A stretch of DNA of 64,000 bases. Source: Patescibacteria group bacterium. Its GTDB lineage: Bacteria; Patescibacteriota; Microgenomatia; Levybacterales; GWA1-39-11. Location: assembly GCA_035549315.1 (NCBI GenBank), contig DASZRC010000026.1, positions 988 to 64,987 on the forward strand, in the 5' to 3' direction. Position 1 is the first letter of the stretch. The number at the start of each line of letters is the position of its first letter. A model generated the notes under the pieces. The model ran no database searches and had not been told where the DNA came from. It saw only the letters and a list, made by a program, of their open reading frames with translations. Position numbers and translations under genes: made by a program. Of this stretch, positions 7,636-56,181 are shown piece by piece.

Positions 7636-7749
7636 AAGTCTAATTTAGACCAACCAAATAATATATTGGTAAAACTTAGGTAAGAATATGACAAAAATGA
7701 ACGAAAGTTATTGTAATAGTAATTAAATTTACCTATACTTGTGATAGAT

Positions 7750-8520: not shown

Positions 8521-8526
8521 GACCTG

Positions 8527-15230: not shown

Positions 15231-15270
15231 AAAAAGATTATATCAGTTTTAAAAATGCCCATCTCTTATG

Positions 15271-15276
15271 TATAAT
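15271..15276 (+). promoter_or_regulatory. TG-TATAAT extended -10-like box 10 nt upstream of the first gene of the glycosylation array
   Basis: tcttatgTATAATagttctacttATG. Implies a very short leader or a leaderless transcript. Confidence 0.3.
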
Positions 15277-17196: not shown

Positions 17197-17277
17197 TCTA
17201 AATACTTTTGTGTTAACAAAAGTATCAAAAATAACTCGCCCATTTTTACTCAAGCTTTTGATATTCATTCGTTCAAC

Positions 17278-17385
17278 GGGGGAATGTTTGCCCCCTCCGC
17301 GATCCAAGTCGATGCTTGGCCGCTGGACCTCCCCCTGTTTCACTCATTCATCTCTCAAGATTTCGTAAAAGGGGCGAGATGGATA
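17278..17385 (+). ncRNA. candidate conserved structured RNA element, copy A (5' leader of the downstream glycosyltransferase gene)
   Basis: GGGGGAATGTTTGCCCCCTCCGCGATCCAAGTCGATGCTTGGCCGCTGGACCTCCCCCTG is about 90% identical to 33782-33840. The differences fall in hairpin loops while the stems (GGGGG/CCCCC; GCGATCCAAG/CTTGGCCGC) are preserved. The downstream shared segment is ATCTCAAGA..AAAAG.GCGA. Confidence 0.4.
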
Positions 17386-17442
17386 TGAATCACTCACACT
17401 GCTTTATTCACAACTAGTTATTGGTTATAATTGATTAGTAAT

Positions 17443-19008
17443 ATGCGGATAACCCGTAATCATTTTCTGTTTTTAGGTGTAGCACTGGCAATATTAGCTT
17501 TGTACATAGTTCTTCGTTTGCTTAACATTCTAAATCTTCCTTTATTTACAGATGAGGCAATCTACATAAGGTGGGCTCAAATTGCAAAACAGGACGCTTC
17601 ATGGCGATTTATTGCTTTGGTTGACGGGAAAGGCCCCTCTTTTGTATGGGCAGAAATGCTAACTCTCAAACTGTTTAAGGATCCACTTTTTGCAGGCAGA
17701 ATGGTTTCCGTAATAACGGGTATATTTACTACAATCGGATTATTCTTTTTGGGCAACGAGGTGTTTCGTGAAAAACAAAAAGGAAAAGAATACAAAGTAT
17801 TTTCATTTACAAAAGAAACAGTGCCTTACGGTCTTCTTTCAAGTTTAATCTACGTTCTTTATCCGTTTGGATTGGTATATGACAGAATGGCTCTCTATGA
17901 CAGCATGGTTGGTATGTTTGCAGTTTGGTCTTTGTACTTGCTATTTTTATTGGTTAGAACCTTAAGGCTTGATGTAGCTTTAATAACCGGTATAGTTGCC
18001 GGAGGAGGTTTATTAACAAAAGTTAATGCAACGTTTTCTCTCTATTCAATTCCATTTTTACTTCTTATTTTTGATTGGAAACAAAAAAATGTTAAATCAC
18101 GTCTGGCAAAGTTTGTAGGCTTGTCTTTGGTAATAGTTATCCTTGCATATGGCATATATTCAATCCTTCGTCTATCGCCGTTTTACCACATAATTGGTGA
18201 GAAGACGACCCTTTTTGTGTATCCCTTTGGAGAATGGATACATCACCCCTTTACCTATTTTTATAGTAACGCCAGAGCGCTTCTTAATTGGTTCTTTATA
18301 TACATGTCTGTCCCTTCAATTATTCTTATAATAGCTTCATTTTTTGTAAATAAGAAAAACTTTATGGAAAAAGCGGTTCTATTTTTATGGTTTATTTTTC
18401 CAATTACAGCACTTGCCCTTTTTGGAAAATTAATCTACCCAAGGTTTATTTTATTTATGACATTATCATTAATACCTCTAATTTCATATTCAATTATTAA
18501 TTTGGTTGATAAATACAAAAGTCCTTTGATAAGAGCTCTAATTATTCTTTTCGCTTTTGTAATGTATATTTATGCTGATTATTTTATAATCTTTAACTTT
18601 GCTTATGCTCCAATCCCCGGAGCAGATCTTGGACAATATATTAACGGATGGAGTGCCGGGAATGGTGTTAAACAATCCGTTGCTTACTTCAACGAGCAAG
18701 CCAAAGATAAAAAAATATATATTGTTACGGAAGGTACATTCGGGCTTATGCCTTATGGGTTGGAAATGTACTTAGTTAATAACCCAAATATTAAAATTCA
18801 AGCTTTATGGCCAATAAATGATAATACTCCAAAAGATATTTTGGATAAAGCCAAGGTAATGCCAACATATGCCGTCTTTTATCAGCCATGCCCATCTTGC
18901 GGGAATGAAGGCGGAAAGATGCCTCCATTATGGAAGGGTGAAAAAGTTTTATCCGAGCAGCAAGGTATAGGTAACTCTTTCTACAGCGTTTATAGAATTC
19001 TTCCATGA
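17443..19008 (+). CDS. GT-C glycosyltransferase, PMT_2/GT39 (ArnT/Pmt-like) family
   Basis: The first loop has PLFTDEAIYIRWAQ, a DE motif. GPSFVW...DPLFAGRMVSVITG resembles the PMT_2 HPPL..RLPSAL.G region. Many TM segments. The track ORF starts at TTG 17431. Confidence 0.55.
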   Translation: MRITRNHFLFLGVALAILALYIVLRLLNILNLPLFTDEAIYIRWAQIAKQDASWRFIALVDGKGPSFVWAEMLTLKLFKDPLFAGRMVSVITGIFTTIGLFFLGNEVFREKQKGKEYKVFSFTKETVPYGLLSSLIYVLYPFGLVYDRMALYDSMVGMFAVWSLYLLFLLVRTLRLDVALITGIVAGGGLLTKVNATFSLYSIPFLLLIFDWKQKNVKSRLAKFVGLSLVIVILAYGIYSILRLSPFYHIIGEKTTLFVYPFGEWIHHPFTYFYSNARALLNWFFIYMSVPSIILIIASFFVNKKNFMEKAVLFLWFIFPITALALFGKLIYPRFILFMTLSLIPLISYSIINLVDKYKSPLIRALIILFAFVMYIYADYFIIFNFAYAPIPGADLGQYINGWSAGNGVKQSVAYFNEQAKDKKIYIVTEGTFGLMPYGLEMYLVNNPNIKIQALWPINDNTPKDILDKAKVMPTYAVFYQPCPSCGNEGGKMPPLWKGEKVLSEQQGIGNSFYSVYRILP

Positions 19009-21404
19009 AGAGTAAATTAATCTTGGTTTTATTGTTTGCTGGAATAATATCCATTGTATTTTTTCATCAAATTCTTAAAGGGTGGATGCCTTTCCCCGGA
19101 GATTTATTAGTTGGTAATCAAGAGCCATACAAATCTTATTCATACCAAGGGTTTGCCCCCGGCGCAGTTCCTAATAAAGCACAAGGTCCGGATGTAATAA
19201 AACAACTTGTTCCCTGGAAGAAATTTGCCATAGATAGTTTTAAAAAAAATCAAATTCCCTTTTGGGACCCCTATAATTTTTCAGGCAATCCTTTAATGGC
19301 AAATTTTCAAAGCGGAGTTTTTTATCCGCTAAATGTCATTTTCTTGACGTTGTCATTTCCAAGTGCTTGGACTATCTATATAGTTCTTACTCCAATTCTT
19401 TCAATATTTTTTATGTATTTATTCCTGGACAGGTTAAAGCTCAAGCCTGCTGCAAGTTTACTTGGTGGAATAAGCTTTTCTTTCTGTCTATACATGGGGG
19501 TGTGGATGGAATATGGAAATATAGGGCACACGCTTTTGTGGTTGCCGTTAATTTTATTTTTAGTTGATAGGTTTATAGATAAGCCTACGCGCTTAGATTT
19601 TTTGGGAATAGTAATTTCTTGTTTGTTGTCTATTCTTGCCGGTTATATTCAGGGAGTATTTTATATTTATGCAGTAGTTGTAATTTATTATTTTGCAAAA
19701 AGTATAAGTCTTAAAAAGATAGATAGAAAAAAGTCTTTATTTTTCTTACTAGCGCTTTTATTTCCGGTACTAATCGCGCTTCCGCAAATTTTACCAACTC
19801 TCGGGCTTTTTGTATATTCCACAAGGGGTAATTATACTTTGGATCAAATTCAAAAAAATCTTAATCCTATTTATTATTTAATAACAACTATTATCCCGGA
19901 CTTTTTTGGTAACCCGGCATCTAGAAATTTTTGGTTTAACGGTACGTATATTGAAAGGGTTTCTTATTTTGGTTTGATTCCTTTTGTCTTTGCAATTTTT
20001 GCTATTTCAACTTTATATAAAAAAATTGAAGTAAGAATATTTTCAATACTATTTGTTTTTACTTTGTTAATATCAACCGACATTTTTGTTACCAGATTTT
20101 TTTATCTAATTCCTATTCCGGTAATCTCAACAACAGTTGCAACAAGAATTCTTTCTATATTTAGTTTTTCGGGAGCAGTTCTTGCGGCTTATGGATTTAA
20201 TCATTTATTGGATCTAAAAGATAAAAAGAAGTTTTATATTATTTCTTCAATTGCCTTTATTTTTATTGCAGGGCTTTTTGTTTATGTAAATATCTATCCC
20301 AAAATCTCCAACAATGCTAATTTGATTAATGATTTTCAAACTTCAAAACGAAACATTATTATTCCAATGGCCACTATAATTTTGTTAATGCTTTCAACTT
20401 TTGCGCTTTTTCTAAAAAACTTTTCCAAGAGAAACTATAAATCATATTTATATATAATTTTAATATTAGTTATTTCATCTTTTGAGCTTTTTTATTATTT
20501 TCAAAAGATCACGCCATTTTCTCCAAAAGAATTTTTATATCCTCAAACTCCAGTTACCAAATTTTTAAAGGAAGAAGCGGGTATAAATAGAGCATGGGGA
20601 TACGGGTCTGCCTATATGGAGAGTAATTTCCAAACATTTGATAATACTTATTCAACAGAGGGTAATGATCCGCTTCACATAAAAAGTTACACAGAATTAC
20701 TTGCTGCAAGCAAGGATGGTAAGATCCCCAATATGTTGCCAAGGCCGGATGCAAATATTGCACCGGGATTTGGTAAGAGTGATTTAGTCTCTAATCTGTA
20801 TAGGAAAAAAGTGTTAGATATTACTGGCGTAAAATATATAATCAATAAAGATGAGAGTATTAATGGTAAATTTAACCCTGACTACACAACTTTTCCTGAA
20901 GATAAATATAAATTAGTCTGGCAGGAAGGTTATTGGCAGGCCTATGAAAATCTTAATGCTACGCCACGTTTTTTTGTTACAAATAATTACCAAGTAATAG
21001 ACGGTAATAAGGTTCTAGAGAAAATATTTGATAAAACTTTTGATGAAAAAAGGCAAATAGTTTTATCATCTAATCCGGGTATTAAGTCAGGGGTTTCATC
21101 AGGGAGTGCAAGACTTGTCTTCTATTCACCCAACAAAATTATAATAGATACAAATTCCAAAGTTCCTGCCCTTCTTTTTCTATCTGATAATTTCTATCCG
21201 GATTGGTCAGCAAGCGTTAATGGAAAAGAGGCTAAAGTTTTTCTGGCTGATTATACATTTAGAGCAGTTCCAGTCTCCAAAGGAAGCAGTAGGGTTATTT
21301 TTGAATTTAAAGCTAAAAAATTCTACTATGGATTATATATATCAATTGCCTCCATATTTATGCTGTTAGTTACATTGTTGGCAATGAATAAATATGAAAA
21401 ATAA
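19005..21404 (+). CDS. YfhO family membrane glycosyltransferase (GT-C)
   Basis: PFWDPYNFSGNPLMANFQSGVFYPLN is the YfhO signature. About 800 aa with an N-terminal TM bundle plus a C-terminal extracytoplasmic domain (YPDW...NG...G). Confidence 0.7.
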   Translation: MKSKLILVLLFAGIISIVFFHQILKGWMPFPGDLLVGNQEPYKSYSYQGFAPGAVPNKAQGPDVIKQLVPWKKFAIDSFKKNQIPFWDPYNFSGNPLMANFQSGVFYPLNVIFLTLSFPSAWTIYIVLTPILSIFFMYLFLDRLKLKPAASLLGGISFSFCLYMGVWMEYGNIGHTLLWLPLILFLVDRFIDKPTRLDFLGIVISCLLSILAGYIQGVFYIYAVVVIYYFAKSISLKKIDRKKSLFFLLALLFPVLIALPQILPTLGLFVYSTRGNYTLDQIQKNLNPIYYLITTIIPDFFGNPASRNFWFNGTYIERVSYFGLIPFVFAIFAISTLYKKIEVRIFSILFVFTLLISTDIFVTRFFYLIPIPVISTTVATRILSIFSFSGAVLAAYGFNHLLDLKDKKKFYIISSIAFIFIAGLFVYVNIYPKISNNANLINDFQTSKRNIIIPMATIILLMLSTFALFLKNFSKRNYKSYLYIILILVISSFELFYYFQKITPFSPKEFLYPQTPVTKFLKEEAGINRAWGYGSAYMESNFQTFDNTYSTEGNDPLHIKSYTELLAASKDGKIPNMLPRPDANIAPGFGKSDLVSNLYRKKVLDITGVKYIINKDESINGKFNPDYTTFPEDKYKLVWQEGYWQAYENLNATPRFFVTNNYQVIDGNKVLEKIFDKTFDEKRQIVLSSNPGIKSGVSSGSARLVFYSPNKIIIDTNSKVPALLFLSDNFYPDWSASVNGKEAKVFLADYTFRAVPVSKGSSRVIFEFKAKKFYYGLYISIASIFMLLVTLLAMNKYEK

Positions 21405-22941
21405 ATACATAATACTTGGTCTACTTATTTTATTGCTAATTCCATCTGTATGGTTTCTAGCAAAAAGCGGATTCGTTCTAACAGATGATGGAAACTGGAT
21501 GATAATTCGTTTCTCAGCATTTTACCAGGCTTTACGGGATGGACAATTTCCCGTTAGGTTTCTATCCAGGCTTAACTTTTCTTATGGATATCCTGTTGCT
21601 AATTTTTTGTATCCGGGCTTTATGTATATTGGTGTTCCAATAAAGCTTGCCGGTTTTAGTTTTGAACAGACAATAAAGGCAATTATTGCTGCCTCTTTTA
21701 TAGGTGGGGGAGTTTTTACATATTTTTGGCTTAAGAAGATTTTTGATGATATAAGTTCTTTTTTCGGGGCGATTTTATATACCTACGCTCCTTATCATTT
21801 GTTCGATGCATACAAGAGAGGGTCAGTTGGAGAAGTATTGTCTCTTGCGGTTTTGCCATTTGTTCTTTGGCAAATAGAGAGGGGCAGTATTTTCTGGATG
21901 GCAATTGGTATTGCTGCTTTAATAATTTCCCACAATACATTGGCGATACTCTTCTTGGGGTTTGTTATTGTTTACGTTTTTGCCAAAAGTTATGGTGTAA
22001 AGAAAAACAAAAAAAACATAGAAAACTATATTTTGGCTTTGGTTATGGGGCTTACCTTATCTGCTTTCTTTTGGCTTCCGGCAGTTTTTGAGCTAGGCTA
22101 TACGGTATTTTCATCAACTAAAATATCTGATTATTCCAAATATTTTGCAGACATAAGCCTTATTGGTATACCAACGTTTATCGTAATGGTAGCTGCATTG
22201 ATTTTGTTTGTTGTAAATAAATTAAAGCCCCAGAAAAATCTGCTCACAATTGCGGTATTTTTAATGGGTATTCTATCTATATATATGTCATCACAATTCT
22301 CATCATTTATTTGGGCTTATTTGCCTGTATCTTTTATTCAATTTCCGTTTAGGGTTTTATCGGTTACAATAATTTGCTTTGCTTATCTTTCTGCTTTTGC
22401 CCTAAATCAAACAAGAAATATCTACAAAATTGTATTTGGCTCAATTCTTCTAGTAGGTTGTTTATACATATCTATGAATACTATCTTTTATCCTAAACTT
22501 GTTAATAATGATGATTCTTTCTACTCTACAAATGAGGCAACTACAACGGTTATGGATGAATATATGCCGACTTGGGTTAAGGTAAAGCCCACTTCCCATC
22601 CGGATGATAGGATATTTATATTAAAGGGGCAGGGGGATGTTCAGAATATTATTAATGATTCCAATACTATTACTTTTGATTACTTGTCAAAGTCGCCATC
22701 TGTTGTGAGGATAAATACAATTTATTATCCCGGTTGGAAAGCATATTCAGGAAATAATGAAAAGGCCATTTTCTATGACAATAATCAAGGCTTAATGGAC
22801 CTAAAGTTAGAAGGCGGAAATCAAAAAATAAAGCTTATATTTGGTGAGACTCCAATTAGGGTTCTGGCAGATTTTGTGTCACTAATTACTTTATTGGTTT
22901 TAATAGCATCGGAAATTAAAAAATTTGACTTCAATAAATAA
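21394..22941 (+). CDS. polytopic membrane protein, PTPS-related-domain (PF10131-like) family, GT-C-like
   Basis: Family blocks: DDGNW..RF..F.QALRDGQFPVRF, YKRGSVGEV, ISHN, and C-terminal YYPGWK. Confidence 0.5.
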   Translation: MKNKYIILGLLILLLIPSVWFLAKSGFVLTDDGNWMIIRFSAFYQALRDGQFPVRFLSRLNFSYGYPVANFLYPGFMYIGVPIKLAGFSFEQTIKAIIAASFIGGGVFTYFWLKKIFDDISSFFGAILYTYAPYHLFDAYKRGSVGEVLSLAVLPFVLWQIERGSIFWMAIGIAALIISHNTLAILFLGFVIVYVFAKSYGVKKNKKNIENYILALVMGLTLSAFFWLPAVFELGYTVFSSTKISDYSKYFADISLIGIPTFIVMVAALILFVVNKLKPQKNLLTIAVFLMGILSIYMSSQFSSFIWAYLPVSFIQFPFRVLSVTIICFAYLSAFALNQTRNIYKIVFGSILLVGCLYISMNTIFYPKLVNNDDSFYSTNEATTTVMDEYMPTWVKVKPTSHPDDRIFILKGQGDVQNIINDSNTITFDYLSKSPSVVRINTIYYPGWKAYSGNNEKAIFYDNNQGLMDLKLEGGNQKIKLIFGETPIRVLADFVSLITLLVLIASEIKKFDFNK

Positions 22942-22942
22942 A

Positions 22943-24664
22943 ATGAAAATTAAGAAATATTTACCAGACATTGTGTATTTAGCTGTTTATTTTATCCTGG
23001 GCTTATTAACAATTCTTCCTTTCTTTAAGCCGGGCTTTTTTGCATTCCATGACGACGTTCAGGTTTCAAGATTCTATGAGATGGGGCAAGCTTTGATATC
23101 TGGACAATTTCCAGTGAGATGGGTTGGGGATTTGGGTTATGGATTTGGTTATCCAATATTTAATTTTTACTCTGTGCTCCCATATTATATAGGTGGTTTT
23201 ATAAATGTATTTGGCGCGGACGCTTTAATTGCAGCAAAAACGGTTTTTGTAATTGGAATTTTGCTTTCTGGATTATCCATGTTTTTTCTAATCAAAGAAT
23301 TTTTTGGTAGACTACCTGCTTTGGTGGCATCAATTGCGTATTTATACTTTCCATATCATGCTGTGAATATCTATGTCAGGGGAGATCTTGCTGAGCTTTT
23401 TGCTTATGCTATCCTTCCTTTGGTTTTTTTGGGACTTTTAAAAATTCATTACTCAAAGGCTAACTTGATTCCTAAGGCGGCAATCATTATTTTGTCTTTG
23501 TCTCTTTTTGCTTTAATAATCTCCCACAATCTATCGGCCTTAATGATGGGAATTTTTATAACTATTTTTGTAGTTGTTTCATTAGTTGCTACAAAAAATA
23601 AAGAAATATATAAATGGTATTTAATTTCATTCTTAATCGCCTTTTTGCTATCTGCTTTTTATACAATACCGGTTCTTTTTGAAATGAAATATACAAATGT
23701 ACTATCACAAGTTGGAATAGGTGGGGGATCAAACTATAAGGACCATTTTCTTTGCATTAACCAATTGTGGAATAGTCCTTGGGGATTTGGTGGATCAACC
23801 AAAGGGTGTATTGCTGATGGGCTTAGTTTTAGATTGGGGAAGATTTATATTTTACTAACTCTTATATCAATTGCCCTGGCAGGATTTTATTTTAAAAAAA
23901 TTAAAGACAAGGCAATGATTTTATTTATTTCAATTGCCTTCCTTCTATTCAGTATATTTATGACTTTGGAGGTCTCGGGCATTATATGGTCTATCCCATA
24001 TATGAATTTTTTGCAGTTCCCATGGAGATTTTTAAATTTTGCGGGATTGTTTATGGCAACTTTAATTGGAATTTCTGTTTATTTAATAGAAAAGGTTTCT
24101 AAAAAAGAAATCTATACTATTGTTGCAGGTCTTATGGTGATAGGAATAATATTCTTTAATGCTAAGTTATTTGCGCCACAGGAGTATCTTAATAGGGAAG
24201 CATCATATTATACAAATAAATATTATCTCAATTGGACTGCATCAAAAATATCGGATGAATATCTCCCTAAAAATTTTAAAAAGCCCACCAATTCTCATGA
24301 CGTGTGGAATTATCCCTTTGAGGCTATACTGCCAAATGGCAACTTGCCCTTACCAAATAAGTTAGTTACAAAAACTCCAACAGATTTGGTTGCTACAACA
24401 AATTTGGCAAATAATTTTGGAGTTGTGGCAAAAACTCCCTATTTTCCTGCATGGAATATTTATATAGATGGTAAAAAAGTGAATTATAAGATTAAAAATG
24501 GAGAAATGTATTTTTCGTTGCCTGCAGGACCCCATAAGATAGAAATTCGTTTTGAACAGACAAGAATTGAGCTTTTGGGTGATTTATTAACTGTTATTGG
24601 AGTTGTAGCTATTTCTATTGTTATAATAAATAAGTCCAAATTTTATGGCAGAAAAACTTCCTGA
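22943..24664 (+). CDS. polytopic membrane protein, PTPS-related-domain-like family (paralog)
   Basis: FHDDVQVSRFYEMGQALISGQFPVRWVGDLGYGFGYPIFNFY, YVRGDLAE, ISHN, YFPAWNIYIDG...GPHKIEIRF. The track ORF starts at 22925. Confidence 0.5.
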   Translation: MKIKKYLPDIVYLAVYFILGLLTILPFFKPGFFAFHDDVQVSRFYEMGQALISGQFPVRWVGDLGYGFGYPIFNFYSVLPYYIGGFINVFGADALIAAKTVFVIGILLSGLSMFFLIKEFFGRLPALVASIAYLYFPYHAVNIYVRGDLAELFAYAILPLVFLGLLKIHYSKANLIPKAAIIILSLSLFALIISHNLSALMMGIFITIFVVVSLVATKNKEIYKWYLISFLIAFLLSAFYTIPVLFEMKYTNVLSQVGIGGGSNYKDHFLCINQLWNSPWGFGGSTKGCIADGLSFRLGKIYILLTLISIALAGFYFKKIKDKAMILFISIAFLLFSIFMTLEVSGIIWSIPYMNFLQFPWRFLNFAGLFMATLIGISVYLIEKVSKKEIYTIVAGLMVIGIIFFNAKLFAPQEYLNREASYYTNKYYLNWTASKISDEYLPKNFKKPTNSHDVWNYPFEAILPNGNLPLPNKLVTKTPTDLVATTNLANNFGVVAKTPYFPAWNIYIDGKKVNYKIKNGEMYFSLPAGPHKIEIRFEQTRIELLGDLLTVIGVVAISIVIINKSKFYGRKTS

Positions 24665-25358
24665 ATTATCCGTCTTCTTTCCTTTTTGGAACGAAGAGAA
24701 AAATATTGAAAAAGTTGTTGGCTCAGCTGTTGAGGTTGCAAGCCGTGTAGCTTCAAAGTGGGAGATAATAATAGTTGATGACGGATCAAAAGATTCAACG
24801 CTCGAGAAGGCTAAGAAGTTGGCTTCAAGTAATCCGAATATAAAGATAATTTCTCATAATCCAAATAGAGGATATGGAGCAGCACTCAAAGAAGGGCTTA
24901 TCAATTCAAAATATGAATACGTTGCGTTTACAGACGGTGACGGGCAATTTGACTTTAATGAAATTGACAAATTTATAGCAGAAATAAAGGACGCAGATAT
25001 GGTAATTGGTTATAAGGTTAAAAGAAATGACCCATTCGGTAGATTAGTATTAATGAATATGTTAAAGGCTTGGGATTATATGTTTTTCTCTCTTTGGTTC
25101 AGAGATATTGATTGTGGATTCAAAATGTTTAGAAAAAAAGCGTTAGATGAAATCATGCCATTAAGATCAGAAGGCGCTATGATCACTACGGAAATCCTGG
25201 CAAAAGCTATAAGGAAGAAGTTAGTTATAAAAGAAGTACCGGTTAATCATTATCCAAGGCAATTTGGTGAACAGTCTGGAGCAAATATTCCGGTAGTTAT
25301 TAGAGCAGTTCTCGAAAGTTTAATTTTATGGTGGGATATAAAGAATAGGAGAGTGTAA
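24645..25358 (+). CDS. GT2 polyprenyl-phosphate sugar synthase (DPM1-like)
   Basis: SVFFPFWNEEKNI...IIVDDGSKDST...YVAFTDGDGQ...VIGYKVKRND. Confidence 0.75.
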   Translation: MAEKLPELSVFFPFWNEEKNIEKVVGSAVEVASRVASKWEIIIVDDGSKDSTLEKAKKLASSNPNIKIISHNPNRGYGAALKEGLINSKYEYVAFTDGDGQFDFNEIDKFIAEIKDADMVIGYKVKRNDPFGRLVLMNMLKAWDYMFFSLWFRDIDCGFKMFRKKALDEIMPLRSEGAMITTEILAKAIRKKLVIKEVPVNHYPRQFGEQSGANIPVVIRAVLESLILWWDIKNRRV

Positions 25359-25367
25359 TCATACAAT

Positions 25368-26807
25368 ATGGACTCCACGAAGGATATAGTAAAACACAGC
25401 ATTAATGGGGTAGTGGCTTTAATATCTAAGACTATAATTCTTGAGATCTTTTTTGGTACAACATCAATAATAATATTCAGCGTACTTACACAGGCTGAAG
25501 TAGGATTGTATGCCGTTGTAATATCTATTCAGAGGGTTATTAGTTTTGTTACAGATTTTGGATTTGGTGCCGCTTTGGTGCAGAAAAAGGACGAAATCAC
25601 CACAAAAGATTTACACACAACATTTACGCTACAAGCATCATTAACATTTGGTATTTTTTTATTGACGCTGATTTTAAGACCCCAGCTTATGAGTTTCTTC
25701 CATCTTGGGAATGAAGGTTACCTACTTTTACTGGTTCTAGTTTTTACAATATTTTTATCTTCCTTCAAGGTTATTCCCTCAATACTTTTGGAGCGTAAAA
25801 TTCACTTTCATAAACTTATAATTCCACAAACCGTTGAGACAATTGCATTTAACATAGTGCTTCTTTCTCTGGTTTTGAATCATTTTGGAATAAATAGTTA
25901 TACTTGGGCTTTCCTAATATCTAGTATTATAAGTATTCCCGTATACTATTTTGTTTCTCCTTGGGAGGTTGGGGTTGGTGTACACAAAGAATCATTAACC
26001 CATCTTAAGTTTGGACTGCAATTTCAGGCAAAAAACGTTTTGGCAACGATTAAAGACGATTTTATAACTGTAATACTGGCAAAGTTTTTAACTTTTACTC
26101 AAATTGGATTTATTGGATTTGCACAAAACCTAGCATTCTATCCTTATAGATATTTTGTAGATAGCGTGACTAGAGTAACCTTTTCAACTTATGCAAGAAT
26201 GCAAGGAGACTTAGATCTTCTAAAGAAGACAATAGAAAAATCCTTATTTTTTGTAAGCCTTATAATGTTTCCTGTTTTGGTGGGGCTAATGGTGACTGCT
26301 CCATATATTATAGAGTTCTTCCCAAAGTGGAATGGTAAATGGGAGCCTGCTTATCTGAGCTTAGTGTTCTTTGCTCTAAATGCGATGATCTCATCTCTTT
26401 CCGGAATTCTTGTTAACGTTTTAGATTCAAACGGCAAGGTAAAGCTCACACTGAGGCTCATGGGAATTTGGACAGCTCTTACATGGATACTAACCTTTTT
26501 GTTCATATACCTATGGGGATATAACGGTGTAGCTATAGCGTCATTTATGGTTACATTAACGATTTTCTACACTGTCTATTTGGTAAAGCAAATCGTAGAT
26601 TTTTCTATGCTCAGATCTATTTATCAACCTCTTATATCTGCTGTTATAATGGGTTTGGGAGTATATTTCCTTTGTCGTATATTTGCGACAAACCTTTTTA
26701 CTTTGGTAATTGTTAGTGGGGTTGGTGCAGCAATTTACCTAACTATAATGTACTTTATGATTGGAAAAGAAATCATCCAAGATATTAAATTAATCTTAAA
26801 AAGATGA
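25368..26807 (+). CDS. oligosaccharide/polysaccharide flippase (Wzx-like, MOP superfamily)
   Basis: About 12-14 TM segments. The polysaccharide-biosynthesis-protein N-terminal pattern is present (LISKTIILEIFFGTTSIIIFSVLTQAEVGLYAVV). Confidence 0.6.
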   Translation: MDSTKDIVKHSINGVVALISKTIILEIFFGTTSIIIFSVLTQAEVGLYAVVISIQRVISFVTDFGFGAALVQKKDEITTKDLHTTFTLQASLTFGIFLLTLILRPQLMSFFHLGNEGYLLLLVLVFTIFLSSFKVIPSILLERKIHFHKLIIPQTVETIAFNIVLLSLVLNHFGINSYTWAFLISSIISIPVYYFVSPWEVGVGVHKESLTHLKFGLQFQAKNVLATIKDDFITVILAKFLTFTQIGFIGFAQNLAFYPYRYFVDSVTRVTFSTYARMQGDLDLLKKTIEKSLFFVSLIMFPVLVGLMVTAPYIIEFFPKWNGKWEPAYLSLVFFALNAMISSLSGILVNVLDSNGKVKLTLRLMGIWTALTWILTFLFIYLWGYNGVAIASFMVTLTIFYTVYLVKQIVDFSMLRSIYQPLISAVIMGLGVYFLCRIFATNLFTLVIVSGVGAAIYLTIMYFMIGKEIIQDIKLILKR

Positions 26808-27730
26808 AACAGACTTTATCGGTTGTAATAACTGCCTACAATGAGGAGCTAAATATTAAGGCGTGTCTTGAATCTTTGGGTGATTTGGCTGATGAAATTA
26901 TTGTTGTAGATAACTCATCTGTTGATAAGACAGAGGAAATTGCAAAAAAATATACAAAAAAAGTTTATAAGCAAAAAAACGATCCAAGTAAAATAGACAT
27001 TCAAAAGAATTACGGATTTTCAAAAGCAACAGGTGATTGGATATTAAGCCTCGATGCTGATGAGCGTTTAACCCCGGATCTTTCTAAGGAAATAAAATCT
27101 GTTATTAGTGGTGATAGTTCTCTGGTTGGCTATTGGATACCAAGGAAGAATATAATATTTAAAAAATGGATTCAGAGTGAAATGTGGTGGCCAGATTATC
27201 AACTAAGGTTATTTAAAAAAGATTTTGGAAAGTATGATAAAAATTCAGTTCACAAAGTAATCACGGTAAGTGGAGAGACTGGAAAACTTACAAACCCCTT
27301 TGTACATGAAAATTATATTAGTGTTGACCAATATCTACTTAAGCTTATTAATTACACAACAATAGAAGCAGATATGTTGATTGACCAAGGATACACATTT
27401 AATTGGTTAGATTCTGTGAGATTTCCCACTAATGATTTTCTAAAGACTTTCTTTTTGCAAAAAGGTTATCAGGATGGATTGCATGGTTTGGTTTTAAGTA
27501 TACTTCAGGCTTTCTACATGGAAGTAGTATTTGTAAAAGTTTGGCAAAAGAATAAATTTATTGAAGTTAAAGGGCCAGGTTTTTTTGCTGAAACACTAAA
27601 AGAATTCAAAAACTCACTTAGGCACTCCAAATATTGGGCTACAACTGTCGAAATAGATAAGACAAAAAATCCAATTAAAAAAATTGGACTAAAAGTTTTG
27701 AGAAAAGCTGCTTCTGACTCTGCCTCTTAA
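26804..27730 (+). CDS. GT2 glycosyltransferase, KdtX/WaaE-like
   Basis: LSVVITAYNEE...IIVVDNSSVDKT...LSLDADERLTP...GYWIPRKNIIF...WWPDYQLRLFKK. Confidence 0.65.
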   Translation: MKQTLSVVITAYNEELNIKACLESLGDLADEIIVVDNSSVDKTEEIAKKYTKKVYKQKNDPSKIDIQKNYGFSKATGDWILSLDADERLTPDLSKEIKSVISGDSSLVGYWIPRKNIIFKKWIQSEMWWPDYQLRLFKKDFGKYDKNSVHKVITVSGETGKLTNPFVHENYISVDQYLLKLINYTTIEADMLIDQGYTFNWLDSVRFPTNDFLKTFFLQKGYQDGLHGLVLSILQAFYMEVVFVKVWQKNKFIEVKGPGFFAETLKEFKNSLRHSKYWATTVEIDKTKNPIKKIGLKVLRKAASDSAS

Positions 27731-27731
27731 A

Positions 27732-28640
27732 ATGAAAATATCTATAGTTATTCTAAATTATAAAAGTGCTGATATTACAATTAATTGTTTAAGATCATTA
27801 AGAAAAATAAATACCGGAAAAGAGAAAATAGAAATAATTGTTGTAGATAATAATTCGGGCGATGATATTAAAACTCAGGTTTTAAATAATTTTCCAGAAG
27901 TAATTCTATTGGAAAATTCAGTTAACTTGGGTTTTTCCGGAGGGTCAAATGAGGGCGCCCGATACGCATTAAAAAATGGTGCAGACGCTGTATTGTTTCT
28001 TAACAACGATACCATTGTAGATAAAAATTTGGTTCTAGAATTAGCAGAAGAAGTTAATAAAGACGAGGTGGGTGGGGTAGTTCCAAAAATATATTTTGAA
28101 AAAGGTTACGAATTTCATAAAGCAAGATATAAAAAAGAGGATCTGGGCAAAGTAATTTGGTACGCCGGCGGACGAATGGATTGGTCAAATTTAATTGGAC
28201 AAAATGTTGGCGTAGATGAGGTTGATAATGGACAATTTGATGATAGAAAAGAAATAAAACTTGCTACCGGTTGTTGTTTTATGGTTAGCTCTAAAACCCT
28301 TAATAGGGTTGGGCTATATGATGATAAATATTTCTTATACTATGAAGATGCAGACCTATCAGAAAGAATTAATAGGGCGGGGTTAAAAATTATTTACCAG
28401 CCAAAAGCTATCCTTTGGCACAAGAATGCAGGTTCTAGTGGTGGATCGGGTTCTGAACTTCAGGATTACTATATTTCTAGAAATAGAATGTTGTTTGGTA
28501 TGAAATATGCACCAATAAAAACTAAGACTGCACTTATTAAAGAAAGCTTAAGATTACTTACAATTGGTAGGAAATGGCAAAAAAAAGGAATAAAGGATTA
28601 TTACAGAGGGAAATTTGGAAAAGGTAGTTATAATATTTAG
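27732..28640 (+). CDS. GT2 glycosyltransferase (rhamnosyltransferase-like subfamily)
   Basis: ISIVILNYKS...IIVVDNNSGD...LFLNNDTIV...YEDADLS. Confidence 0.7.
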   Translation: MKISIVILNYKSADITINCLRSLRKINTGKEKIEIIVVDNNSGDDIKTQVLNNFPEVILLENSVNLGFSGGSNEGARYALKNGADAVLFLNNDTIVDKNLVLELAEEVNKDEVGGVVPKIYFEKGYEFHKARYKKEDLGKVIWYAGGRMDWSNLIGQNVGVDEVDNGQFDDRKEIKLATGCCFMVSSKTLNRVGLYDDKYFLYYEDADLSERINRAGLKIIYQPKAILWHKNAGSSGGSGSELQDYYISRNRMLFGMKYAPIKTKTALIKESLRLLTIGRKWQKKGIKDYYRGKFGKGSYNI

Positions 28641-28656
28641 CTTATAGATTTAAAAT

Positions 28657-30297
28657 ATGGAACTTATCAAAAAAAACTTAGGTTTAATAATAGTTATTAT
28701 TCTTGGGGCAATTCCTTTATTTAGCTTGTTGCACCCGGGTCTTCCTTTAACTCATGATGGCCAAGATCATGTTGCAAGAATTGCTAATTTCTATCAATCT
28801 CTCAGCGAAGGCAACATAATTCCTAGATGGGCTGGGAATCTTGATTGGGGATATGGGCACCCCATCTTGATGTTTTTGTATCCATTCTCGTCATACGCCG
28901 CATCTTTTTTTCACTTCTTGGGATTTAATTTTGTAGATTCTCTTAAGATCGTATTTGGTTTGGGTTTTATCGCCAGTGGCATATGTATGTATATTTGGTT
29001 AAGAGAATTCTTAGGAGAGAAGGTAGCAATTGCCGGAGCTACGCTCTATCTGTATGCTCCCTATAGATTTGTTGATCTGTATGTTAGAGGAGCAATAGGA
29101 GAGCACATGGCCTTTATTTTTCCACCTTTAATTGCATACTTCCTTATCAAAATGGTAAATAAAAAATCTTACTGGTATTTTCTTGGGGCCACATTATCCA
29201 TTGCCGGACTTATACTATCCCACAATGCATTATTAATAATGTTTCTTCCAATCATTATGATCTATGGTTTATACCTAATTCTTACTAATAAAAAACAATC
29301 CCAAAGATTAATTATTGAATATCTATTAGCTCTATTGTTAGGATTTAGTCTTTCATCATTCTTTATAATTCCGGCATTTTTAGAAGGTAAATACACCTTG
29401 CGTGATATTGTTACCGATGGGGAAGTATTAAAAAGATTTGTCCAATTTAAAAATATAATATATAGTCCGTGGGGGTATGGAGATTTCTCTGTTCAGCTAG
29501 GGATTGCGCAGTGGGCTACGATAATTTTCTTTCCTTTTGTTATTTATAAACTCAAAAAAAATACAAATAATTTAATTCTTTATTTAATATTTTTTGTATA
29601 TTTCTTGGGAAGTATAGTCATAATGCTTCCCGAGGCAAAACTAATTTGGCAAGTTATTACAACGCTTCAAAAATTCCAATTCCCTTGGAGATTTTTGTCT
29701 GCCTCTGTTTTTTCGGCAGCTCTTTTAGGAAGCTTTTTTGTTTTTGTACTTAAGAAAAATGTTCAGCTATTGGGAGTTGTATTGATTGTTGTTTTTTCAA
29801 TTATTTTGACTAAAACCTACTGGCAACCAAAGGCATATCTTATGAAGCCGGAAGCTTTTTATACAGGGATTTATAACGGGACAACAGATACCGGTGAAAG
29901 TGCTCCTATTTGGTCGGTAAGGTTTATGGAGAACCGTCCAAAAGCCAGAATTGAGGTAATCGAAGGGAAAGCCACTATTAAAAATGTTTCTAGAAATTCT
30001 ACAGAGCATGTATATACAGTTGTCTCTAATGGCAATTCAGGATTAAGAGAGAATACATTATTCTTTCCGGGATGGAAAGTTTATATAGATGGTGTTGAGT
30101 ATCAAAATGTTGAATTTCAAGATCCTCATAACCGAGGCTTGATGACTTTCAAGGTTCCCAATGGGGAACATAAAGTTGATATTAAATTTGAAAACACCAA
30201 GCTTAGGACCATATCAAATGTTATATCACTTGTTTCAATAGCTATTGTTTTTCTTGTGTATTTTGTGTGGAAGCAGAGAATTAAAAAACTAACATGA
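28657..30297 (+). CDS. polytopic membrane protein, PTPS-related-domain-like family (paralog)
   Basis: THDGQDHVARIANFYQSLSEGNIIPRWAGNLDWGYGHPILMFLYP, YVRGAIGEH, LSHN, FFPGWKVYIDG...GEHKVDIKF. Confidence 0.5.
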   Translation: MELIKKNLGLIIVIILGAIPLFSLLHPGLPLTHDGQDHVARIANFYQSLSEGNIIPRWAGNLDWGYGHPILMFLYPFSSYAASFFHFLGFNFVDSLKIVFGLGFIASGICMYIWLREFLGEKVAIAGATLYLYAPYRFVDLYVRGAIGEHMAFIFPPLIAYFLIKMVNKKSYWYFLGATLSIAGLILSHNALLIMFLPIIMIYGLYLILTNKKQSQRLIIEYLLALLLGFSLSSFFIIPAFLEGKYTLRDIVTDGEVLKRFVQFKNIIYSPWGYGDFSVQLGIAQWATIIFFPFVIYKLKKNTNNLILYLIFFVYFLGSIVIMLPEAKLIWQVITTLQKFQFPWRFLSASVFSAALLGSFFVFVLKKNVQLLGVVLIVVFSIILTKTYWQPKAYLMKPEAFYTGIYNGTTDTGESAPIWSVRFMENRPKARIEVIEGKATIKNVSRNSTEHVYTVVSNGNSGLRENTLFFPGWKVYIDGVEYQNVEFQDPHNRGLMTFKVPNGEHKVDIKFENTKLRTISNVISLVSIAIVFLVYFVWKQRIKKLT

Positions 30298-32615
30298 AAA
30301 AAATTTTAATTAGATTTTGGCCAATCATACTTATTTTTGTAATTTGGCTAGTTTTTGCCTCCCCCTACTTGGTTAAAGGAAAAGTACCCTTCCCATCAGA
30401 CTATCTTGCAGCAAACTTTGGGCCCTGGAATTCATACGGAAATTATGTGGGAGGGGTTAAAAATGGTGCGACTCCGGATGTAATAAGTCAGATATATCCA
30501 TGGAAAAAAATGGTCATAGATATTTGGAAAACCGGGAGCCTTCCGTTATGGAACCCATACAATTTTTCCGGGACGCCGCTACTCGCAAATTATCAGTCTG
30601 CTGTATTATCACCTCTCAATCTGATCTATTTTGTACTGCCTTTTATTGATGCCTGGAGTATACAAATAATACTCGCTCCGCTTCTTGCCGGAATATTTAT
30701 GTACCTTTTTACAAGATCGCTTAAGATAAGTGAATTTGGTTCTCTTACTGCATCTCTTGCTTTTATGTTTTGTGGATTTATTACCTCTTGGTTAGTTTAT
30801 GGAACCTTACCTTATGCAATTTTATTTTTACCACTTTCCTTATTTGCAATAGAAAAATTTATCTTGGATAAAAAAAGAATTTACCTTTTGATTTTGGCTT
30901 TATCTATTCCGTTCTCATTTTTCAGTGGACATTTTCAAACAAGTATCTACTTTATTCTATTTATATTAATTTACTTAATTTATGAATCTATTGTAAATAA
31001 GAGATTAATTATTCCGCTCTATATCTCTGTCCTTTCAGGGCTTTTATTATCTGCTCCTCAGCTTTTTCCATCAATTGAGTTTTATTTTGAGTCTGTAAGA
31101 AGTTCAATATTTATAAAAACGGAAGTGATACCTTGGGGTTATCTTCCTACACTTATTGCTCCGGATTTTTTTGGAAATCCGGTAACTCGAAATGATTGGT
31201 TTGGCCACTACGCTGAGTGGAATATGTATATTGGTTTAATCCCATTGTTTCTTGCTTTTTATTCCTTCTCTAAAAAAAATAAAGATACAATATTTTTTGG
31301 AATAGCAGCACTAGTTATTTTATTACTATCCTTCCAAACGCCTTTATTAGATTTATTAATTGCATTAAAGATCCCTGTTTTATCAACAAGTGCGGCATCA
31401 AGAATAGTTGTTTTGTTTAGTTTCTGTTTATCTGTTTTAGCAGGGTTTGGTTTAGATAAGGTAGTAAAAGATGTTGAAGAGGAGAAGTTTAAAAAAATAG
31501 TTCCCCTCTTTGCCATCTTCTTTTTAATTTTTGCCGCTCTATGGACAATAGTAATAACAAAAAGTATATTGCCGCTAGATAAGGCATCTATTGCTTATTC
31601 TAATCTAAGATTGCCTTCTATAATTTTTGCATGTTTTGTTGTTGTCAGCCTTATTTTATTTATCATAAAAAATAAAAAAATGAGATTTATTATCTTGGGC
31701 TTTCTTATTTTGCTTGTTTCAGTAGATTTAATTAGGTTTTCTTTAAAGTGGCAACCTTTTGAGGATAGAAGCCTAATGTATCAGAATGTTCCAATAACCA
31801 ATTTTCTTAAAAACATTAAGCCAGAGGACAGGGTTTTTGGTTCAATAAATCAAGAGGGTGCAATGTACTATGATTTTTCAATTCCGGAAGGATATGATCC
31901 ACTTTATATCGGGCGTTATGGTGAATTGATTGGCGCAGCAAAAGATGGAGAATATCATAGTCCGGAAAGATCAGTTGTTAGCTTGTCAAAAAATGGCCAG
32001 TATACAGGACAAATAATTAATCTTCTTGGGATTAAGTATATTATTCATAAAATTTCAGATGGGCAGGCAGTATGGGCATTTCCATATTGGACTTATCCAG
32101 TAGATACTTTTAGAGAAGTTTATAAAGACGACAAATATCTGGTTTTAGAAAATGATAAAGCACAACCTAGAGCCTTTTTTGTTGATAAAGCCAAAGTTGT
32201 AAAAAATAATAGAGAAATTCTAAGACAATTATTTAGAAAAGAATTGGATTTAAGAAAAAACGCTGTCTTGGAAGAAAATCCGGGAATTAGTGAGGGAAAT
32301 TCATCTGGGAGTGCTATTGTCAAAGTCTACACGCCAAATAAAGTAGAAGTAGCAACAAATAATAACAAAGCGTCTGTTCTTGTTCTTTCAGACCCTTACT
32401 ACCCGGGGTGGAGAGCTACGATTAATGGGAAACCTGCCAAAATTTATAGAGCAGATTATGCTCTCAGGGCAGTTGTCGTGCCTAAAGGAAAGAATACAGT
32501 TACATTTAGTTATAATCCCAAAAGCTTCCTTTATGGCTTAGTTTTAGCAGGAATTGGCGTGATAATGCTTATTTTGCTCATGTTTTATTCGGCTATGCCT
32601 CCCCGAAAAAAATGA
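30294..32615 (+). CDS. YfhO family membrane glycosyltransferase (GT-C), paralog
   Basis: LPLWNPYNFSGTPLLANYQSAVLSPLN. C-terminal YYPGWRATINGKPAKIYRADYALRAV. Confidence 0.7.
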   Translation: MKKILIRFWPIILIFVIWLVFASPYLVKGKVPFPSDYLAANFGPWNSYGNYVGGVKNGATPDVISQIYPWKKMVIDIWKTGSLPLWNPYNFSGTPLLANYQSAVLSPLNLIYFVLPFIDAWSIQIILAPLLAGIFMYLFTRSLKISEFGSLTASLAFMFCGFITSWLVYGTLPYAILFLPLSLFAIEKFILDKKRIYLLILALSIPFSFFSGHFQTSIYFILFILIYLIYESIVNKRLIIPLYISVLSGLLLSAPQLFPSIEFYFESVRSSIFIKTEVIPWGYLPTLIAPDFFGNPVTRNDWFGHYAEWNMYIGLIPLFLAFYSFSKKNKDTIFFGIAALVILLLSFQTPLLDLLIALKIPVLSTSAASRIVVLFSFCLSVLAGFGLDKVVKDVEEEKFKKIVPLFAIFFLIFAALWTIVITKSILPLDKASIAYSNLRLPSIIFACFVVVSLILFIIKNKKMRFIILGFLILLVSVDLIRFSLKWQPFEDRSLMYQNVPITNFLKNIKPEDRVFGSINQEGAMYYDFSIPEGYDPLYIGRYGELIGAAKDGEYHSPERSVVSLSKNGQYTGQIINLLGIKYIIHKISDGQAVWAFPYWTYPVDTFREVYKDDKYLVLENDKAQPRAFFVDKAKVVKNNREILRQLFRKELDLRKNAVLEENPGISEGNSSGSAIVKVYTPNKVEVATNNNKASVLVLSDPYYPGWRATINGKPAKIYRADYALRAVVVPKGKNTVTFSYNPKSFLYGLVLAGIGVIMLILLMFYSAMPPRKK

Positions 32616-32671
32616 TTTTTATACTTTATGTCAAATACTATATACTAAATACCATATACCAAATATAAATT

Positions 32672-33418
32672 ATGATATCTTTGTTAATAATTACAAAAAA
32701 TGAGGAAGATGTAATAGAAGACGCAATAAAATCTGCAAAGGGGTTTGCGGATGAAATAATTGTTGTTGATGACTCAACTGATAAAACTCCCGAGATAGCC
32801 AGGAAGCTTGGGGCTCGTGTAATAGAAAATAAGTTCAAAGACTTTTCAGATCAAAGAAATTTGGCAGCTTCTGCAGCAAAGCATGCATGGTTATTCTATC
32901 TAGATGCCGATGAGCGTTTAACACCGGAAATAATTAAAGAAATTAAAGATCTTTTGGATCTATATGACCTTACATTTGAAGAAATGGGGTTTTGGGTTAA
33001 GCGTAAGACATTTTATTTTGGACGAGATTGGCATTTTGAGGACAAGGTCCAAAGATTTTTTAGAAAAGACAAGTTTAAAGGCTGGCAAGGCGTAGTCCAT
33101 GAAACTCCTGAGGTTGAAGGGAAATTGGGTTTGATAAAAAACCCTATTTTGCACTACACCCATAGAAATCTGTCACAAATGATTGCCAAAACCAATGAAT
33201 GGTCTGAATATGAAGCCGAGCTTAGGTTAAAAGCGCACCATCCCAAGATGACATGGTGGCGTTTCCCAAGAGTCATGATCCCGGCTTTCTTTGGTTCGTA
33301 TTTTGGTGGCGGAGGGTATAAAAACGGTACCCCCGGATTAGTAGAGGCAATCTATCAAGCATTTTCAATGTTTATTACTTACGGAAAGCTTTGGGAAAAA
33401 CAAAAGGCTAGTAAATAG
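32672..33418 (+). CDS. GT2 glycosyltransferase, KdtX/WaaE-like
   Basis: ISLLIITKNEE...IIVVDDSTDKT...FYLDADERLTP...GFWVKRKTFYFGR. Confidence 0.65.
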   Translation: MISLLIITKNEEDVIEDAIKSAKGFADEIIVVDDSTDKTPEIARKLGARVIENKFKDFSDQRNLAASAAKHAWLFYLDADERLTPEIIKEIKDLLDLYDLTFEEMGFWVKRKTFYFGRDWHFEDKVQRFFRKDKFKGWQGVVHETPEVEGKLGLIKNPILHYTHRNLSQMIAKTNEWSEYEAELRLKAHHPKMTWWRFPRVMIPAFFGSYFGGGGYKNGTPGLVEAIYQAFSMFITYGKLWEKQKASK

Positions 33419-33421
33419 TAA

Positions 33422-33661
33422 CTATTTACTATTTTTGGGGAGCCAAGATTTTATTTCCTCGATTGTGAGTGGTTTTTTGCAGAATTTAAATAAATAGATT
33501 AGCTCAATAATTCCGGCTGTATTTATAGGTAGAATAAAAAATATAAACCAATTTCTCTGCTTGTTGTTAGCAGCCCTCCAGGTTGCAATTCCACGCCAGA
33601 TTATGCTCCATACCAAAAGCACAAACAAAACCGGAAGCGGAATAGGTGAATTTGTATTCAT
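33422..33661 (-). CDS. small two-TM membrane protein (DUF5652-like?)
   Basis: VLFVLLVWSIIWRGIATWRAANNKQRNWFIFFILPINTAGIIELIYLF. It is the only minus-strand gene inside the 49-kb array. Confidence 0.4.
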   Translation of the reverse strand: MNTNSPIPLPVLFVLLVWSIIWRGIATWRAANNKQRNWFIFFILPINTAGIIELIYLFKFCKKPLTIEEIKSWLPKNSK

Positions 33662-33781
33662 GTGACTAATTTACCACAGATTGATCCCGTAATCAACGAT
33701 TTATATTTCTTTTGTACAGACAAAAGAAACAAAAACTGCCATCGCGGTTTTGTTCATGCTTTCTATTTTAAGTCGCTTATC

Positions 33782-33885
33782 GGGGGCATTTCTTCCCCCT
33801 CCGCGATCCAAGCTTTGCTTGGCCGCTAGACCTCCCCCTGATACGCTCGTTAAAATCTCAAGAAATCACAAAAGTGCGATGTGTT
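33782..33885 (+). ncRNA. candidate conserved structured RNA element, copy B (5' leader of the second gene array)
   Basis: GGGGGCATTTCTTCCCCCTCCGCGATCCAAGCTTTGCTTGGCCGCTAGACCTCCCCCTG. See copy A. It sits about 94 nt upstream of the GT4 gene start codon. Confidence 0.4.
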
Positions 33886-33933
33886 TACTAAATGAATGTA
33901 TGTGGGAAGATAATATTTTGATACAATTATGCT

Positions 33934-56177: not shown

Positions 56178-56181
56178 AAAT

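Follow-up and report, generated by a model that had tools for sequence, protein, structure and literature searches.

A candidate structured noncoding element beside glycosyltransferase arrays of Levybacteria-like Patescibacteria

Results

Two copies of a shared module precede long co-directional arrays

We analysed a 64-kilobase (kb) stretch of DNA from a groundwater Patescibacteria group bacterium (contig DASZRC010000026.1 of assembly GCA_035549315.1; this whole stretch is called the window below). The closest named relatives of its genome are Levybacteria. The window carries two copies of a module of about 145 nucleotides (nt), at 17202-17343 (copy A) and 33706-33846 (copy B), both on the + strand and both placed ahead of very long arrays of co-directional genes (16 and 22 kb). 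Site A is the junction leading from an MptA_B-family gene to a GT39/PMT_2 gene, which starts at ATG 17443. Site B leads from a DUF5652 gene to a GT4/GT1 gene, which starts at ATG 33934. The DUF5652 gene (33422-33661, - strand) encodes a membrane protein of 79 amino acids (aa) and is transcribed away from copy B, so that this copy lies between divergent promoters. In the sister genome introduced below, the gene's own -10-like block is conserved (TAATTTACCACAGATT when read on the + strand).

The central part of the module had been described in the original prediction as a pair of 60-mers, and the positions and letters given there are correct for both (17278-17337 and 33782-33840). The core does lie 106 and 94 nt from the respective start codons, 17443 and 33934. 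The two gaps are the largest stretches of the arrays free of open reading frames (ORFs); the one around copy B also holds the DUF5652 gene. Differences between the copies do fall in both hairpin loops; there is, besides, one G>A change outside them (CTGGACC/CTAGACC). The shared block further downstream (TCAAGA..AAAAG) is real, but it is separable, being kept without the remainder at site B of the sister genome. Similarity extends beyond the 60-mer, with 17205-17371 aligning with 33709-33874, and an 18-mer common to both copies, CCCCCTCCGCGATCCAAG, occurs exactly twice in the window (0.02 expected from shuffles). Runs of G5 or C5 are depleted in the window, where 39 were found and 79 expected; each copy carries three.

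The module begins with an AU-rich hairpin (P1). About 45 nt of linker separate it from a GC-rich domain, some 73 nt long, which comprises an outer helix (P2), a second hairpin (P3) and invariant C-rich strands. In both window copies P1 reads CTTTTGT-N4-ACAAAAG and is followed by CAAAA. P1 of copy A (17202-17225, ATACTTTTGT-GTTA-ACAAAAGTAT, then CAAAAA) begins 6 nt past the stop codon of the MptA_B-family gene. The linker (17226-17270) is G-poor and U-rich, about 60% identical between the copies and devoid of conserved pairing. The GC-rich core (17271-17343) includes the 60-mer and is closed by outer P2 (GT.CAAC.../...GTT.AC). Within the core, the first C-rich strand (17290-17298) is the invariant CCCCCTCC, preceded by a variable G/T position and unpaired if G5 pairs with the 3' C-run. 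P3 (17299-17323) has a GCG/CGC base, an AU internal loop and a distal CCAAG/CTTGG stem, and is followed by a second invariant C-rich strand, CCTCCCCC (17328-17335), which either forms the 3' strand of P2 or is free if G5 pairs locally. A loosely conserved, separable 3' block (TTCACTCATTC..TCAAGATTTCGTAAAAGGGGCGAG) occupies 17344-17385. Copy B has the same order: P1 at 33706-33729 (TTTCTTTTGT-ACAG-ACAAAAGAAA, then CAAAAA), the linker at 33730-33774 and the core at 33775-33846, which contains outer P2, G5, the first C-rich strand (33794-33802), P3 (33803-33826) and CCTCCCCC (33831-33838). Its 3' block (CGCTCGTTAAAATCTCAAGAAATCACAAAAGTGCG, 33847-33885) is the part that the sister genome keeps without P1 or core.

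The element is patchily distributed among relatives

Loci of relatives were gathered via orthologues of the two downstream glycosyltransferases. The full element is found at site A of the sister genome GCA_035545675.1 (locus L006; 87% protein identity to the window). At site B of the same genome (L067/L068; 78%), P1, linker and core are missing; the 3' block and the promoter are kept. A further true copy was obtained from a metagenome pattern scan, looser than the one applied to GTDB, and lies on a 1.1-kb contig from Hainich groundwater (L027). The core-containing copies are therefore four, from three organisms. At site A of another relative (L071/L072; 65%), P1 and the linker are present and a pyrimidine-rich cassette of 44 nt replaces the core. 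The same cassette is found in L034-L036 (68%), whose contigs end there. The remaining site A loci (L008/L009, L010, L032/L033, L069 and L073; 60-67%) have gaps of merely 8-45 nt and no element, and the element is also absent at site B of L070 (69%). Where present at site A, it starts 6, 7 and 16 nt past the upstream stop codon in three genomes. The site A spacer seems to be built from exchangeable modules. Carriers and non-carriers were interleaved in a rough neighbour-joining tree of the GT39 protein.

Some local features of these loci were recorded. The cassette (..TTCACT..CACTTTCCTCTTTT..) stands at the core's place in L071:5385-5470 and L034:1-120, and the downstream region that both share ends in TTCCGGTGCAA(T/C)GGCG. 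The longer spacer of the sister genome has two occurrences of the 3' block motif CTTACGAAAAAGGG, separated by about 50 nt (L006:9816-9885), a local duplication. Independent Logan assemblies break in or beside the element at site A (L007:1-39 and the starts of L034, L035 and L036), which may reflect further copies or strain variation in those samples. On the Hainich contig, the stop codon of a convergent GT-C-like ORF follows the element 19 nt later and a canonical terminator lies about 200 nt upstream, within some 700 nt of upstream sequence that hold no convincing ORF. A G4/C5 hairpin resembling the element's first hairpin (GATGGGGAAACTTAATCCCCCATC) and the terminator ATCCGCC-CCT-GGCGGAT, followed by a T-run, were seen at L027:354-378 and 468-500.

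Broader searches did not enlarge the set. An exact-pattern scan of GTDB species genomes gave a single chance match, in a GC-rich coding region of Pseudomonadales, and the metagenome scan gave 20 chance matches in GC-rich contigs besides the true Hainich copy. Viral contigs scanned with three patterns yielded chance matches only, and blastn against plasmids and phages yielded none. A covariance model (R1) run on about 250 kb of related loci recovered the core-less L071/L072 and no extra copies. Spurious ORF translations of the element, used as a route to more copies, had no match in the protein database. Two candidates within the window were rejected. One was a further diverged copy, looked for in the gap at 55903-56182, which by eye holds a GIY-YIG-type-looking ORF; the other was the 3' block as a recurring motif upstream of other window operons (8 loose matches versus 4.8 expected). 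Occurrence in related genomes, which had been proposed as a check of the element, is thus confirmed by the sister and Hainich copies but does not extend to the orthologous sites of most relatives. Across the loci and collections compared, the element is rare, lineage-specific and patchily distributed.

Compensatory changes preserve a fold of the + strand

An alignment of the four core-containing copies yielded a consensus with four helices. P1 has 10-13 base pairs (bp). Its inner stem, CUUUUG/CAAAAG, is invariant in five sequences, L071 included, and its outer pairs differ in every one of the five with complementarity retained. Outer P2, which closes the GC-rich domain, pairs GC.UUAWC with GWU.GC; at columns 74/146, 75/145 and 79/141 both sides change and the pairing stays. 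A short helix, P2b (GUYU/RGAC), shows consistent one-sided changes. The base of P3, GCG/CGC, is invariant and is followed by an AU internal loop; all four copies fold to the same outline. The P3 tip is formed by three unrelated self-complementary sequences: CCAAG/CUUGG in copies A and B, CACGCC/GGCGAUG in the sister copy and GCCAC/GUGGU in the Hainich copy. Taken over the whole structure, 95.6% of the cells are paired, and in nine pairs both partners change (at most two in controls in which the structure was slid by 1-3 columns). The covariation score was 0.348, compared with no more than 0.078 in the same controls. Covariation analysis, proposed earlier as a check, supports P1, outer P2 and P3 by compensatory changes, but with four sequences its outcome is suggestive and not statistically secure.

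The helices also distinguish between the strands. They contain 13 G·U cells, each of which would read as an A·C mismatch if the minus strand folded, and this indicates that the + strand is the one predicted to fold. An alternative pairing of G5 had been raised in the original prediction and is borne out: G5 can pair with either the adjacent C5 or the 3' C5, with close energies. Pairing with the adjacent C5 gives 7 bp in the sister and Hainich copies, and the covarying pairs are compatible with both pairings of G5. Because two C-rich octamers compete for one G5, one of them is always single-stranded, either CCCCCUCC or CCUCCCCC. Helices kept by compensatory substitutions provide good support, but not proof, for a structured noncoding element.

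The copies are old and their invariant blocks are constrained

Overall identity among the four copies is 62-72%, with roughly equal distances between them. Copies A and B share 107 of 149 aligned positions (72%). This equidistance indicates that copy B is not a recent duplicate of copy A. Flanking genes of the two sister genomes show about 75% DNA identity, and intergenic sequence adjoining the element cannot be aligned; the blocks CCCCCTCCGCGATC and CGCT(G/A)GACCTCCCCCTG are invariant save for the single G/A position. This pattern of conservation indicates that the element is under selection.

Predicted promoters lie between the element and the downstream genes

The region between each window copy and its downstream gene contains a -10 block conserved in the sister genome amid diverged surroundings. 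At site A, this block (ATTGGTTATAAT) stands 11 nt before ATG 17443 and contains the TATAAT box of the GT39/PMT_2 gene (17426-17431, + strand). At site B, a conserved block of 16 nt (AATATTTTGATACAAT) stands 6 nt before ATG 33934 and contains the extended -10 box TGATACAAT of the GT4/GT1 gene (33919-33927, + strand). As both boxes lie between the element and the start codons, the element is upstream of the predicted promoter and outside the predicted transcript. Its spacing from the -10 box varies (about 85, 77 and 190 nt), and a terminator scan found no terminator-like site between core and gene at either copy.

Similar promoter positions are common in the window. Among 38 + strand genes, 11 have a -10-like box (TAYAMT) within 25 nt of the start codon, against 1.6 expected, and two have a Shine-Dalgarno-like motif, against 4.6 expected at random positions. 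This suggests that mRNAs whose leader is absent or very short are widespread in this Patescibacteria lineage, and the GT4/GT1 mRNA is probably leaderless. The boxes often stand 3-18 nt from the start codon, as at 874-879, 15270-15275, 17426-17431 and 33922-33927.

The element matches no catalogued RNA family

The original claim that the element belongs to no known family has held. No Rfam match was obtained at gathering thresholds, and nothing credible appeared up to E = 10. With Rfam 15, the whole window gave only a tRNA (3330-3401) at gathering thresholds. Permissive scans of both copies returned weak matches (E 0.4-7.7) that were far below threshold and on the other strand or off the core, and scans of the Hainich and sister copies returned nothing. 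Rfam families span riboswitches, ribozymes, tRNA, tmRNA, SRP, RNase P, 6S and sRNAs, and include EAR and put-like RNAs. HDV-like and other small ribozyme folds were dropped on inspection, as were tRNA-like att sites, integron attC sites and IS200/IS605 ends, for which conserved core sites, matching end hairpins and associated genes were not seen. The literature was searched for Patescibacteria noncoding RNAs and for leaderless translation in this group, and nothing relevant was retrieved.

Comparison with small RNAs with C-rich seeds, REP-type repeats, polysaccharide leaders and riboswitches reveals partial likenesses. Similar to RsaE/RoxS of Firmicutes, the element is accessory and lineage-specific, and presents, on a stable hairpin scaffold, short invariant C-rich single strands to which G-rich sites of mRNAs could pair. 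It differs from them in having neither a sequence or Rfam match nor a recognisable promoter or terminator. Moreover, the usual target class is missing, as window genes do without Shine-Dalgarno sequences, and the lone candidate target described below sits in a coding region. With REP/BIME, ERIC, Correia and RUP repeats it shares a short extragenic nature, hairpin potential, a position at operon boundaries, variable presence and occurrence more than once per genome. Unlike them, it has a very low copy number, old and diverged copies with compensatory changes and invariant unpaired bases, a one-strand fold that uses G·U pairs, and no associated transposase seen. Like the EAR RNA of Bacillales, the ops/JUMPstart element (RfaH) and LoaP leaders, it is noncoding and is found heading or inside very long sugar-polymer clusters. 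In contrast to these, it has no Rfam match, a conserved promoter lies downstream of it, orthologous clusters lack it, and the Hainich copy has no downstream co-directional gene. The compact GC-rich domain, with junction nucleotides that do not vary, stems that do and two pairings that exclude each other, is reminiscent of riboswitches. However, there is no expression platform, that is, no terminator or ribosome-binding site to hide; the element lies outside the gene's predicted transcript, and it is not conserved with the gene family that it would regulate. By these comparisons, it appears to resemble most a small RNA with a C-rich seed or a REP-type boundary element, but the full set of defining properties is seen for neither. 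It does not have those of riboswitches, intrinsic terminators or any Rfam family.

A candidate pairing site follows copy B

We ranked predicted duplexes of the 16-nt single-stranded stretch of copy B (CAUUUCUUCCCCCUCC, 33787-33802) over 21,324 + strand windows of the 64-kb stretch. The best + strand duplex lies at 33971-33989, with -23.6 kcal/mol compared with -18.3 kcal/mol for the runner-up (z about -6). The possible pairing partner there, GGGAGGGGGGGAGAAAT, lies in codons 13-18 of the GT4/GT1 gene. Its G-run consists of the synonymous Gly codons GGA GGG GGG; the sister genome, which has no copy B, reads GGT GGA GGA and L070 reads GGT GGC GGA. Codons 13-18 also contain the sole + strand occurrence of GGAGGGGG in the window outside the elements. 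The idea that the core is an inverted copy of the adjacent glycosyltransferase gene's 5' end was rejected, as the complementarity stops at 16 nt.

Discussion

A strand-specific fold, invariant unpaired nucleotides, a variable tip, independence of context and a narrow, patchy range together point to specific recognition of the folded + strand by an RNA or a protein. A generic hairpin is not what this combination of features suggests. Our preferred but tentative reading, which we regard as possible although short of probable, is that the element is a lineage-restricted regulatory small RNA displaying a C-rich strand. A small RNA had been the third option of the original prediction. Such an RNA would be free-standing, or would derive from the 3' end of the upstream transcript, if transcribed as we suppose. 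Competition for G5 would leave CCCCCUCC or CCUCCCCC exposed. Acting in trans or as an antisense RNA, the exposed strand may then bind G-rich stretches of mRNAs, which are rare; the one candidate target lies beside copy B, in codons 13-18 of the GT4/GT1 gene. A bolder version, which is speculative and in our view improbable as a whole, envisages a new class of Patescibacteria regulatory RNA in Levybacteria-like Microgenomates. In this class, a two-state scaffold would let one of the mirror-image C-rich octamers, CCCCCUCC or CCUCCCCC, pair with rare 5' G-rich codon runs of leaderless glycosyltransferase mRNAs, such as GGAGGGGGGGAG (codons 13-18 of the gene at 33934), and would thereby tune surface glycosylation in organisms that show no control based on Shine-Dalgarno sequences, the loop and the synonymous codons of its target co-evolving.

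Several observations weigh against a regulatory small RNA. The covariation, being drawn from four core-containing copies only, is suggestive and short of statistical security. The target pairing is a single post-hoc case, and no comparable target was found at the gene beside copy A or in 30 kb of the sister genome. No promoter is conserved upstream of P1 in the five upstream sequences read, where the promoter grammar of the lineage is known solely from -10 boxes beside genes, and no recognisable terminator follows the core. Finally, sub-modules come and go, the core being replaced in L071 and L034 and P1 and core missing in L067, and such gain and loss also fits a decaying or selfish repeat.

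Two other readings assign the function to the adjacent gene or to an encoded peptide. A cis-regulatory leader or riboswitch was among the functions originally proposed. In this reading, transcripts of the long glycosyltransferase operons would start at a promoter ahead of P1 and carry the element as a 5' leader, which would work as a riboswitch or through processive antitermination. Such a leader would suit the position of both window copies at the head of the 16- and 22-kb arrays, a place where other polysaccharide operons carry leaders of the EAR, ops/JUMPstart and LoaP kinds. With two C5 runs competing for G5, a switch could form, and the loop of copy B is able to base-pair near the start of the coding sequence that follows. 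However, conserved -10 boxes 6-11 nt from the start codons stand between element and genes, neither a Shine-Dalgarno sequence that could be sequestered nor a terminator that could be controlled is present, and the distance to the gene is not conserved. Orthologous operons do without the element (L008/L009, L010, L032/L033, L069 and L073), the sister genome lacks it at site B with the promoter kept, and the Hainich copy has no downstream co-directional gene. These results contradict control of the downstream glycosyltransferase by a leader or riboswitch and indicate that the element is neither required by that gene nor positioned to control it in cis, as far as promoters can be predicted. The leader or antitermination idea would survive only with unseen upstream promoters, and we think it a poor prospect. 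A small protein gene, translated from an ATG within GGGGGAATG and reading M[FS][AS]PSAI....LDLPL, is far less credible still. The frame is open in copy A (34 aa), the sister copy (43 aa) and the Hainich copy (an ORF of 65 aa), in all three of which the variable P3 region measures 18 nt. In copy B, by contrast, it is broken by the lack of an ATG, a 1-nt deletion and a TAG stop, and the nucleotide blocks are nonetheless kept. Third codon positions are invariant in the conserved blocks even though flanking genes are just 75% identical in DNA. The peptide tails are unrelated among copies, no promoter box adjoins the small-ORF ATG, and a peptide-alignment search of 5.8 billion sequences found no such protein. 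The broken frame, the invariant third positions and the missing database protein place the constraint on nucleotides and not on a peptide, so that the small-protein reading is largely refuted.

The remaining readings take the element as a repeat, a boundary signal or a DNA site. A selfish or decaying palindromic repeat of the REP/BIME or MITE type, without host function and carried at operon boundaries and with hairpins recognised by a mobilising enzyme, is unlikely. Presence differs at orthologous sites of close relatives, cuts are clean at module borders (L071, L067), context and orientation to neighbours vary in the Hainich copy, the closing helix P2 resembles short terminal inverted repeats, and Logan contigs end in or beside the element (L007, L034-L036), as they do at repeats. 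Mobile repeats, however, typically show near-identity or random decay, and neither is seen; the copies are old, about equally diverged (62-72%), and carry invariant unpaired nucleotides and compensatory stem changes. Comparison of filled and empty sites revealed no target-site duplication, and no transposase or RAYT was present among the window proteins scanned against Pfam or the Pfam-labelled genes of the related loci. Only two copies occur in 64 kb, and phage, plasmid and viral collections gave no matches. Somewhat less likely again is an operon-boundary RNA that blocks read-through, acting as a non-canonical terminator or insulator or protecting the 3' end of the upstream transcript. The element always lies between transcription units, starts 6, 7 or 16 nt past the upstream stop codon at site A of three genomes, and folds into a long hairpin that is rich in GC, whereas the genome is AT-rich. 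Canonical hairpin and U-tract terminators are not enriched in the window (14 found, 14.9 expected), linker and replacement cassette have more C than G, like Rho loading sites, and relatives manage without the element, as expected for an accessory boundary signal. Against this, no U-tract follows P1, where the sequence is A-rich, or the core, where it is mixed, and a scan for intrinsic (Rho-independent) terminators found none at either copy. The 8-9 invariant unpaired bases and invariant junction nucleotides would be needless for a simple terminator. Copy B follows the promoter of a divergent gene and not a co-directional stop codon, and the Hainich copy is downstream of a canonical terminator. 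Recognition as double-stranded DNA by a protein, as an operator or recombination site, we judge very unlikely. P1 would be its palindrome, CTTTTG-N6-CAAAAG, and the GC-rich blocks would be further sites; the palindrome is perfectly Watson-Crick with a fixed N6 in five sequences, a third half-site CAAAA(G/A) is present, and invariant blocks of 14-19 nt match the size of protein-binding sites. Yet the 13 G·U cells in core helices and a P3 tip that changes and remains paired are marks of a single-stranded fold, the outer pairs of P1 vary with complementarity preserved, and the distance to either flanking promoter is not fixed.

Other features of the window merit mention. Small insertions occupy two further array gaps: a '23S rRNA intervening sequence protein' gene (PF05635; 45914-46258, + strand), in a gap of the glycosyltransferase array, and, at about 55940-56180 (+ strand), the small ORF that by eye resembles a GIY-YIG type. 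At 7741-10986 (+ strand), a Ku gene is followed by a full-length LigD gene with phosphoesterase, ligase and primase-polymerase domains. By these predicted domains, the two genes make up a complete pair for non-homologous end joining, here within a small genome of the Patescibacteria.

In practical terms, the headline claim of a riboswitch or leader serving the glycosyltransferase genes is answered in the negative. Its present standing is that of a modest candidate motif, with four copies in three organisms, real and uncatalogued, from a poorly understood phylum. If it is a functional RNA, it would join a very short list of candidate regulatory RNAs from the candidate phyla radiation. It would then offer a way into the regulation of surface-glycosylation arrays in cells with tiny genomes, in which the genes of this window make no use of Shine-Dalgarno sequences and the mRNAs are apparently leaderless.

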